This document shows, one piece after another, positions 9,001 to 12,000 of a stretch of 22,605 bases of DNA (within the stretch, counting starts at the first letter, position 1; each line of letters begins with the position of its first letter). The DNA is from a virus (lineage: Duplodnaviria > Heunggongvirae > Uroviricota > Caudoviricetes), in IMG/VR virus record IMGVR_UViG_3300045988_025751, positions 1-22,605 of that record. One strand, 5' to 3'. The position numbers are program-made.

Positions 9001-12000
9001 TTGAAGACGAATCGCATCCTGACCGTTACAGCGCACAATATCGCGCAGAATCGCAGCCGGACGGTATCCTCGGCATCGGAACATGGCGAGACTTCATCGT
9101 CTGCTTTGGTTCATCGACTATTGAATATTTCTCCCTGACTGGCGCAACCACCGTTGGTGCTGCTTTGTATGTCGCGCAGCCATCACTGATGGTGCAAAAA
9201 GGCATCGCCGGGACTTACTGCAAAACGCCGTTTGCTGATTCCTATGCTTTCATCAGCAATCCGGCAACAGGTGCACCGTCTGTATATATCATCGGCTCCG
9301 GTCAGGTGTCACCAATCGCCAGCGCGAGCATTGAGAAAATTCTCCGCTCCTACACTGCTGATGAACTGGCTGATGGTGTGATGGAATCGCTGCGGTTTGA
9401 TGCTCATGAGCTGCTGATTATCCACCTTCCGCGCCATGTACTCGTGTACGACGCATCTTCAAGTGCCAATGGTCCGCAATGGTGTGTGCTGAAAACAGAC
9501 CTGTATGACGATGTGTACCGCGCTATCGATTTCATTTACGAAGGCAATCAGATAACGTGCGGCGATAAGCTGGAATCCGTGACCGGGAAATTGCAATTCG
9601 ACATCAGCAGCCAGTACGACAAGCAACAGGAACACCTGCTGTTTACTCCACTGTTCAAAGCGGATAACGCCAGATGCTTCGATCTGGAGGTGGAATCATC
9701 CACTGGCGTAGCTCAGTACGCCGACCGCCTGTTCCTCTCTGCAACCACTGACGGCATCAATTACGGGCGTGAGCAGATGATTGAGCAGAATGAACCGTTC
9801 GTTTACGACAAACGTGTTTTGTGGAAGCGAGTAGGGCGCATCAGAAAAAATGTCGGCTTCAAATTGCGCGTTATCACGAAGTCACCTGTCACTCTGTCAG
9901 GCTGCCAGATAAGGATTGAGTAATGGCTGATTCGAATCTCAATGTGCCGGTAATCATTCAGGCTACACGGCTCGATACATCAGTTCTTCCACGCAATATC
10001 TTCTCGCAGTCATATCTGCTGTACGTTATCGCACAGGGCACTGATGTTGGTAACGTGGCGAATAAGGCCAACGAGGCCGGACAGGGCGCTTATGACGCGC
10101 AGGTAAGGAATGATGAGCAGGATGTGATTCTCGCTGACCATGAGCAGAGAATTTCTGCTGCGGAAGCAACGCTTGTTAATCATGAGGAGCGAATCAGCCA
10201 GGCAGAATCAACTCTTCAGGAACATGAAACACGAATCACTCAGAATGAAAGCGATATTGCGTCGCTTGATACCAGAGTTCAGTCGCTGGAGTCGCAGGTT
10301 TCAGACCATGAAACGCGCATCGATGCTCTGGAGTATGCCACTGCTCGCAAGAAGTCAGAGGTTGTTTACTCTGGCGTATCAGTAACCATTCCGACAGCGC
10401 CGACCAACCTTGTTAGCCTGCTGAAAACGCTCACGCCGTCATCAGGCTCGTTGGCACCATTCTTCGACACCGTTAACAACAAGATGGTTGTGTTCAACGA
10501 GAACAAAACCCTGCTCTTCAAGTTGTCGATTGTCGGCACGTGGCCCAGCGGAACCGCCAACAGGTCAATGCAGCTAACCTTTTCCGGCTCTGTTCCTGAC
10601 ACGTTGGTCAGCAGTCGTAATGCGGCGACAACAACCGACAACATCCTGTTAGCTACGTTCTTCAGCGTGGATAAAGACGGCTTTCTTGCCACAAATGGCA
10701 GTACGTTAACCATTCAGTCAAATGGGGCGGCGTTTACTGCCACAACCATCAAAATCATTGCGGAGCAGTGATGATTCAGTTCAAACCAACGCGAAACATC
10801 GACCTGATCGAAGCAGTCGGAAATCACCCTGACATTATTGCCGGGAGCAACAACGGTGATGGATACGACTACAAACATGATTGCCGTTACTTTGAGGTGA
10901 ACGTGCACGGGCAGTTCGGCGGCATTGTTTACTATCAGGAGATTCAGCCGCTGACATTCGATTGCCACGCCATGTACCTGCCAGAGATTCGCGGCTTCAG
11001 CAAGGAAATCGGGCTGGCGTTCTGGCGATACATTCTGACTAACACCACTGTTCAGTGCGTCACATCGTTCGCTGCACGCAAATTCCGCCACGGTCAGATG
11101 TACTGCGCAATGATTGGCCTTAAGCGTGTAGGAACCATCAAGAAATACTTCAAAGGCGTTGATGACGTGACGTTTTACAGCGCCACACGCGAAGAACTAA
11201 TCGACTTCCTGAATCACGGGAGATAGCCATGTTATATGCATTTAAGCTGGGCAGAAAACTGCGCGGCGAGGAACCTTATTGCCCTGAAAAGGGTGGGAAA
11301 GGTGGCAGTTCTGATAAAAGCGCAAAGTATGCCGCAGAAGCTCAGAAGTATGCAGCAGACCTGCAAAATCAGCAGTTCAACACCATCATGAACAACCTGA
11401 AGCCGTTTACTCCTCTGGCTGATAAGTATGTCGGCAGCCTCGAGAACTTATCGTCTCTGGAAGGGCAAGGTCAGGCACTTAACCAGTATTACAACTCTCA
11501 GCAGTACAAAGATCTTGCTGGTCAGGCTCGCTATCAGAGTCTGGCTGCAGCGGAAGCAACAGGTGGATTGGGTTCCACTGCAACCGGTAATCAGTTAGCA
11601 ACAATCGCACCAACGCTTGGTCAGCAATGGCTATCTGGTCAGATGAACAACTACCAGAATCTGGCAAATATTGGTCTTGGCGCACTGCAAGGTCAGGCAA
11701 ACGCCGGGCAAACATATGCCAACAACATGAGTCAGATTTCACAGCAAAGCGCGGCTCTTGCAGCGGCAAACGCCAACAGACCATCAGCAATGCAATCTGC
11801 TATTGGCGGAGGTGCGTCTGGTGCCATTGCTGGGGCTGGACTTGCGAAATTAATTGGTTCATCAACTCCGTGGGGTGCTGGTATCGGTGCTGGTATCGGT
11901 CTGCTTGGTTCACTACTTTATTAAGGGGTAATCAATGGCTACGTGGCAGCAGGGTATTAATTCTGGTGGTTTTCTGGCTGGCATCGGTACGCAAAATGAG

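Follow-up and report, generated by a model that had tools for sequence, protein, structure and literature searches.

A tail needle gene of the Sf6 type

In a viral DNA stretch of 22,605 nucleotides (IMG/VR record IMGVR_UViG_3300045988_025751, positions 1 to 22,605; Caudoviricetes), hereafter called the window, we examined a tail needle gene that is the homolog of P22 gene 26 and Sf6 gene 9. We are very confident that this gene encodes the Sf6-type "knobbed" tail needle of a P22-like (Lederbergvirus-type) Escherichia coli/Shigella podophage, and no evidence contradicting this assignment arose in the analysis. The sequence identities, domain limits, ligand residues, synteny, joints, and prevalence given below were all observed directly.

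The open reading frame (ORF) is intact, begins with ATG, and translates to 282 amino acids, which confirms both the length and the protein letters given by an earlier reading of the window made from sequence alone, whereas the needles of P22, HK620, and Dewey each have 233. Its ATG overlaps the stop codon of gene 10 by one nucleotide (TAATG), and its TGA overlaps the ATG of gene 14 (TGATG). Starts and stops in the P22 late operon are typically coupled this tightly. Over its full length, the window needle is 96.8% identical to Sf6 gp9, 97.5% to the needle of Kapi1, and 98.9% to that of the E. coli 19AR0254 prophage, but only 36–39% to those of P22, HK620, and Dewey. Likewise, the profile PHROG 1030 ("tail needle knob") is matched with an expect value (E) of 1.5e-134.

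The distribution of similarity along the protein reveals where the two needle types part. Identity to P22 gp26 is 82% over residues 1–73, 33% over residues 74–140, and 20% over residues 141–282, the last value being alignment noise. When all Protein Data Bank (PDB) chains were searched, the needle gave two nonoverlapping kinds of match, to P22 gp26 at the N-terminal side and to the Sf6 and HS1 knobs at the C-terminal side. The P22 gp26 entries 2POH, 3C9I, 4ZKP, and 4LIN match residues 1–144 only (E from ~1e-44 to 1e-48), and no P22 or HK620 needle chain in the PDB matches past residue 144–145. Thus, the sequence-only reading was right that the last ~140 residues bear no relation to the P22 C-terminus, and this region did not align with P22 gp26.

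The C-terminal region matches crystallized knobs

The C-terminal matches are strong. Residues 130–282 align with few substitutions to the knob of the Sf6 "gene 9 protein" (3RWN; E 2.6e-88) and to the HS1 knob domain (4K6B; E 7.9e-88). In addition, residues 108–282 match the "Sf6-type phage tail needle knob" family (Phage_tail_NK, PF16532) across all of its profile positions (1–175 of 175) with 382.4 bits, where the cut-off for this family is 27 bits. These results bear out the Sf6-style knob suggested by the sequence-only reading.

Leavitt et al. (2013, PMC3741392) defined the Sf6-type knob as Sf6 residues 140–282, a homotrimeric jelly roll similar to that of tumor necrosis factor (TNF), in which each subunit has seven antiparallel strands. 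It holds three L-glutamates through E146, K200, S248, and D250 and a phosphate at the triad S231-R232-N233 (PMC3741392; Sf6 numbering, converted from HS1 by the offset of −35 given in that report). All seven residues are present at the same positions in the window knob. The knobs of all P22-like phages diverge by no more than 4.9% (PMC3741392), and the window knob falls inside this limit, differing from Sf6 at 5 of 142 residues (3.5%) over positions 141–282.

The crystallized knobs 3RWN and 4K6B are ~97% identical to the window knob over 153 residues, and on this basis the latter is predicted to adopt the same jelly-roll fold. The description of the C-terminus as beta-rich therefore stands on these crystallized relatives and not on a model of the protein itself. 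Three points weigh against our assignment. The AlphaFold2 (AF2) model built from the single sequence has a predicted local distance difference test (pLDDT) score below 50 over residues 142–282 and is uninformative for the knob. Two residues, S176 and L198, are private to the window knob, with T and F at these positions in Sf6, HS1, Kapi1, and 19AR0254. Finally, the biological role of the knob itself is only partly defined in the literature. As for L198, which lies two residues away from the glutamate ligand K200, we see no sign that it is functionally important.

The N-terminal domain is shared and the shaft is not

Residues 1–73 are 82–100% identical to the corresponding parts of the needles of P22 (82%), HK620 (94.5%), Dewey, and Sf6, and the N-terminal domain is thus common to both needle types. 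The hub-binding segment is conserved, as had been proposed. It is matched by the 62-residue gp26 chain B of the P22 tail entry 8EAP (E 1.7e-27), and by 2POH with E 1.6e-44.

Beyond this domain, a single a/d heptad register runs without a break over residues 63–139, or about 11 heptads. In this register, 17 of the 26 a/d positions are occupied by I, L, V, or A, as opposed to 4–11 in the other registers, and the motif HExRI recurs at residues 73, 87, 101, and 129. The single-sequence AF2 model places one helix over residues 42–142, with pLDDT above 90 over residues 70–130. A heptad coiled coil conserved with P22, as had been claimed, is therefore found as a pattern but not as a sequence: identity over residues 74–140 is 94% to Sf6 and only 22–33% to P22, HK620, and Dewey. 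Judged by sequence, the shaft is of the Sf6 type, not the P22 type, from codon ~70 onward.

Comparison with known needles

Sf6 gp9, which has been modeled in the Sf6 tail by electron cryomicroscopy (cryo-EM; PMC9728967), shares with the window needle its length of 282 residues, its three-part architecture, its glutamate and phosphate ligand residues, and its position between genes 10 and 14. The likeness extends to the DNA, where nucleotide identity of ~94% is continuous from gene 10 into gene 7. The two proteins differ by nine substitutions (S92R, E100D, T106A, A113S, A141T, S176T, L198F, A234S, and A270S, with the window residue given first), none of them at a ligand position, and the two phages differ in that the body of the window tailspike is unrelated to that of Sf6. 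The knobs of HS1 (4K6B), Kapi1, Louie, and the E. coli prophage are ~97–99% identical to the window knob, and the Prokaryotic Genome Annotation Pipeline (PGAP) name for such products is "tail needle knob protein." HS1 shares A270 with the window but has a longer shaft of 16 heptads within a protein of 317 residues (PMC3741392), whereas the window needle has the 11-heptad length of Sf6. Phages Gally and JEP4 carry knob needle genes that are ~105 nucleotides longer (954 versus 849), which is consistent with extra shaft heptads as in HS1.

The gp26 proteins of P22 (2POH, 3C9I) and HK620 (5BU5) resemble the window needle in their N-terminal hub-binding domain, heptad plan, gene position, and plug function, but differ in their length of 233 residues and in a C-terminal tip that is unrelated to that of the window. 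No homology to the P22-type tip (P22, epsilon34, and HK620 subtypes) is present in residues 141–282 of the window needle, where identity to P22, HK620, and Dewey is 10–20%. An HK620-style knob, which the sequence-only reading had named together with that of Sf6, was rejected. HK620 gp26 is identical over its full length to the solved 233-residue chain 5BU5 (E 6e-145) and aligns with P22 gp26 through the C-terminus; Leavitt et al. (2013, PMC3741392) likewise count it among the P22-type tips, as the type member of "subtype A."

The Dewey needle (PQ850600.1, 9137–9838) is annotated as a "tail needle knob," yet it is a 233-residue protein of the HK620/P22 type and has no knob. Over residues 141–282, it is 10.6% identical to the window needle, and C-terminally it aligns with the HK620 needle. 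The label probably entered the public record through the mistaken transfer of an annotation.

The shaft and knob form an exchanged cassette

Relative to Sf6, no joint is present in the needle gene, as identity in 100-nucleotide bins stays flat at 93–98% from gene 10 into gene 7. When the comparison was made with the P22/HK620/Dewey type, identity of 91–96% fell to 40–59% at window position ~10105 and returned to 93–100% from the 10805 bin. Megablast matches stop at nucleotide 209 of the needle gene for Dewey and at nucleotide 230 for HK620, and in a nucleotide alignment Dewey is nearly identical to the window until ~10125 and unrelated beyond ~10153. The mosaic joint that had been placed at residue ~140 thus lies near codon 70 (codons ~68–77). 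On the right, all needle types become homologous again at the needle stop codon and the first codons of gene 14.

Because the joints fall at codons ~68–77 and at the stop codon, the swapped cassette comprises most of the shaft (from codon ~70) together with the knob. The allele would then have arisen by a cassette exchange that replaced codons ~70–282 relative to needles of the P22/HK620 type, with a left joint where the conserved N-terminal region ends and a right joint at the stop codon of the gene. Dewey, with its P22/HK620-type tip, and Louie, with a knob, are close relatives that differ in exactly this shaft-plus-knob cassette; therefore, the swap operates among nearly identical genomes. 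The natural left joint almost coincides with a junction made by engineering, in that a viable P22/Sf6 hybrid was constructed by putting Sf6 codons 69–282 in place of P22 codons 69–233 (Leavitt et al. 2013, PMC3741392).

A second intragenic joint was observed downstream in gene 7, which encodes the ejection protein gp7 (11229–11924). Identity to Sf6 passes from ~96–99% to ~73–80% midway through this gene (window ~11300–11900), in a region where HK620 is 92–100% identical as far as compared (~11800) and the 19AR0254 prophage is 96–100% identical.

Genome context

The order gp10, needle, gp14 is common to Sf6, HK620, P22, Kapi1, Dewey, and the E. coli prophage. On the head side, the window carries gp3, the large terminase, portal, scaffold, an ORF for an HNH endonuclease on the opposite strand, coat, gp4, and gp10; after the needle come gp14, gp7, gp20, gp16, an immI-like stretch with an antirepressor gene (ant), the tailspike, and the integrase (Table 1). 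The best matches to the whole window are the E. coli phages Dewey, Louie, IME10, and CurroJimenez, with ~95–96% identity over about half of it. The needle gene belongs to an intact P22-type operon for virion assembly and not to a small prophage remnant.

Table 1. Needle gene, its parts and joints, and other features of the window
Feature	Position	Strand	Basis
Tail needle gene (P22 gene 26/Sf6 gene 9 homolog)	9923..10771	+	282 codons plus TGA stop; PDB, Pfam, and PHROG matches; identity to Sf6 gp9
N-terminal domain, residues 1–60; predicted to bind the tail hub gp10 and plug the channel	9923..10102	+	Identity and 8EAP match; role from PMC9728967
Predicted trimeric coiled-coil shaft, residues ~61–139, about 11 heptads	10103..10339	+	Heptad register, AF2 helix, identity
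C-terminal knob, residues 140–282; predicted TNF-like jelly-roll trimer with L-glutamate- and phosphate-binding residues	10340..10768	+	3RWN/4K6B, PF16532, PMC3741392
Left recombination joint versus P22/HK620/Dewey-type needle genes, codons ~68–77	10126..10153	+	Nucleotide alignment, megablast, 100-nucleotide bins
Right joint, needle stop codon and first gene 14 codons	10769..10782	+	Nucleotide alignment; HK620/Dewey 93–100% from the 10805 bin
gp10 homolog, tail hub/"packaged DNA stabilization protein," docking partner of the needle	8505..9923	+	PF11134, 992 bits; synteny
gp14 homolog (DUF2824)	10771..11226	+	PF11039, 178 bits; junction sequence; Sf6 annotation with 1-nucleotide overlap
HNH_3 endonuclease ORF, 173 residues	5500–6021	−	PF13392, 78 bits; between scaffold gene (4588–5499) and coat gene (6089–7384)
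Tailspike, 710 residues	17731–19863	+	Head-binding domain (residues 1–118) matches Sf6 gp14 and P22 gp9
Integrase gene	19923–21116	−	Directly after the tailspike

Several further observations concern the neighbors of the needle gene. A mechanical ORF list puts the start of gp14 at a GTG at position 10768. Some E. coli prophages have a gene for a NUMOD4-domain (homing-endonuclease-like) protein annotated beside the needle gene. In the head-gene block of the window, the HNH ORF looks like the insertion of a free-standing homing endonuclease; no such ORF separates the scaffold and coat genes of the E. coli 19AR0254 prophage, which are adjacent there. The body of the tailspike has no close solved relative and gave distant similarity to pectate-lyase-like folds and the phi29 gp12 appendage (E ~1e-13), along with short tailspike matches. 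Residues ~118–128 of this protein form a classical tailspike mosaic joint.

At the far end of the window, no gtr genes for O-antigen conversion lie between the tailspike and integrase genes, a place where P22 carries gtrABC. A tRNA scan of the window, made in search of an attachment site near the integrase gene, detected no tRNA genes. The DNA past the integrase gene (21117–22605) is phage early-left DNA matching P22 and Louie, and therefore the window either is in the phage permutation (rather than that of a prophage end) or has its phage attachment site (attP) further on.

Alternative explanations

Given that the needle is the first part of P22-like phages to contact the cell surface (PMC9400499), the knob might instead be a receptor-binding module that determines specificity for the outer membrane of Escherichia and Shigella (e.g., for OmpA or OmpC), so that its exchange would change the host range. 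The TNF-like fold class is also that of the receptor-binding knobs of adenovirus and PRD1, and in 2013 the knobbed needles known were all from phages of Escherichia or Shigella, with none among 48 Salmonella P22-like phages (PMC3741392). Nevertheless, we consider this explanation unlikely because P22 chimeras that carry Sf6 codons 69–282 or the knob of HS1 show normal infection of Salmonella, virion function is apparently unaltered by mutations that should eliminate glutamate binding (PMC3741392), and the Sf6 mutations that expand host range all map to the tailspike (PMC9400499). It is also at odds with phiKp_30, which is recorded as a Klebsiella phage and carries a gene that is 94.3% identical. 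The term "host-interaction protein," as applied to the needle by the sequence-only reading, is overstated in light of the same chimera and tailspike results. A related idea, that the knob is an Escherichia/Shigella-specific envelope sensor acting through its bound L-glutamate or distal tip and retuned here by S176 and L198, strikes us as very improbable; if true, it would explain why knobs are nearly confined to phages of these hosts even though the chimeras work on Salmonella.

Two other explanations concern the state and the ancestry of the gene. Fragments of several P22-like genes, with an Sf6-type needle gene among them, have been reported from more than 100 E. coli genomes (Leavitt et al., PMC3741392), and of the 5426 complete E. 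coli genomes that were compared, 915 have some needle match but the match covers at least 80% of the gene in only 463, which could indicate that the window gene is likewise a nonfunctional part of a decayed prophage. It is exceedingly improbable that this applies here, since the late operon is uninterrupted from the small terminase gene through the tailspike and integrase genes, each ORF is of full length with an end-to-end Pfam match, the ORF of the needle is intact and coupled by overlaps at both its start and its stop, and the window runs past the integrase gene into early-left DNA. The second of these explanations is that the needle is of the P22 type and that its tip was altered only by divergence or lengthened by an insertion, with no replacement of a domain. 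Global alignment does force a few scattered identities in the C-terminal region. However, these amount to noise (10–20% over residues 141–282 relative to P22, HK620, and Dewey), and DNA identity drops to ~50%, as expected by chance when gaps are allowed in the alignment. With P22 and HK620 PDB matches that end by residue 145 and a C-terminus that matches PF16532 and the knob crystal structures (E ~1e-88), the PDB, Pfam, and segment-identity results refute a diverged P22 tip, which has virtually no chance of being correct.

A proposed role in DNA delivery

We favor the assignment of the gene as a knobbed needle that functions as its relatives do. Its fold, trimeric state, ligand binding, plugging, and effect on kinetics are inferred from published work on proteins that are 97–99% identical to it. 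Three needle chains would form one long fiber. Their N-terminal ~60 residues would enter the hexameric gp10 hub and plug the channel after DNA packaging, in keeping with cryo-EM of the Sf6 tail, in which the needle trimer closes the hexameric hub and an N-terminal helical hairpin makes a quasi-six-fold bundle (PMC9728967). Residues ~61–139 would form a trimeric coiled-coil shaft that reaches beyond the tailspikes, and residues 140–282 a distal jelly-roll knob that binds a phosphate on its three-fold axis and three L-glutamates where the subunits meet.

When the phage adsorbs, the tip would meet the outer membrane and the needle would be released, after which the ejection proteins (gp7, gp20, and gp16), whose genes lie just downstream, would exit and be followed by the DNA. 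In published work, the needle is lost after the particle reorients, and the ejection proteins build a conduit across the envelope (PMC9400499, citing cryo-electron tomography of P22). Although the glutamate-pocket mutations leave virion function apparently unaffected, several other changes to the tip slow the release of K+ (PMC3741392). Taken together with the normal infection of Salmonella by chimeras, the slowed K+ release suggests that the tip modulates the kinetics of delivery and confers no host specificity in the laboratory. By this mechanism, the type of tip would tune how fast DNA is delivered and not which host is infected.

Prevalence and implications

The needle is an already known, ordinary member of a described family, and its only allele-specific features are S176 and L198. 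The exact 282-residue sequence is already public on six contigs in JGI/IMG and ENA, and the protein falls in a cluster built at 90% identity that has 3620 members, those with names being called "tail needle knob protein [Escherichia coli]." The same cluster also lists entries of 153–159 residues named "DUF2824 family protein," the name that belongs to the downstream gene product gp14; these presumably reflect an artifact of clustering or gene calling and not a biological relationship. The matches counted above in complete E. coli genomes carry the PGAP name "tail needle knob protein," and a survey in 2013 recorded the Sf6-type needle in 69 of 164 P22-like genomes (PMC3741392). The knob-type needle gene of phiKp_30 (LC768498.2, 13781–14627; recorded host Klebsiella pneumoniae; 94.3% DNA identity) indicates either that the cassette has a wider host range than was reported in 2013 or that the host label is doubtful.

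The finding has little consequence beyond annotation, for which a fitting name would be "tail needle knob protein (Sf6 gp9-type)." For phage engineering, the coincidence of natural and engineered junctions confirms the end of the N-terminal domain as a permissive splice point for needle tips. For the P22-like phages, the window provides a clean natural case of the shaft-plus-knob swap described by Casjens, Cingolani, and colleagues from 2011 to 2013.

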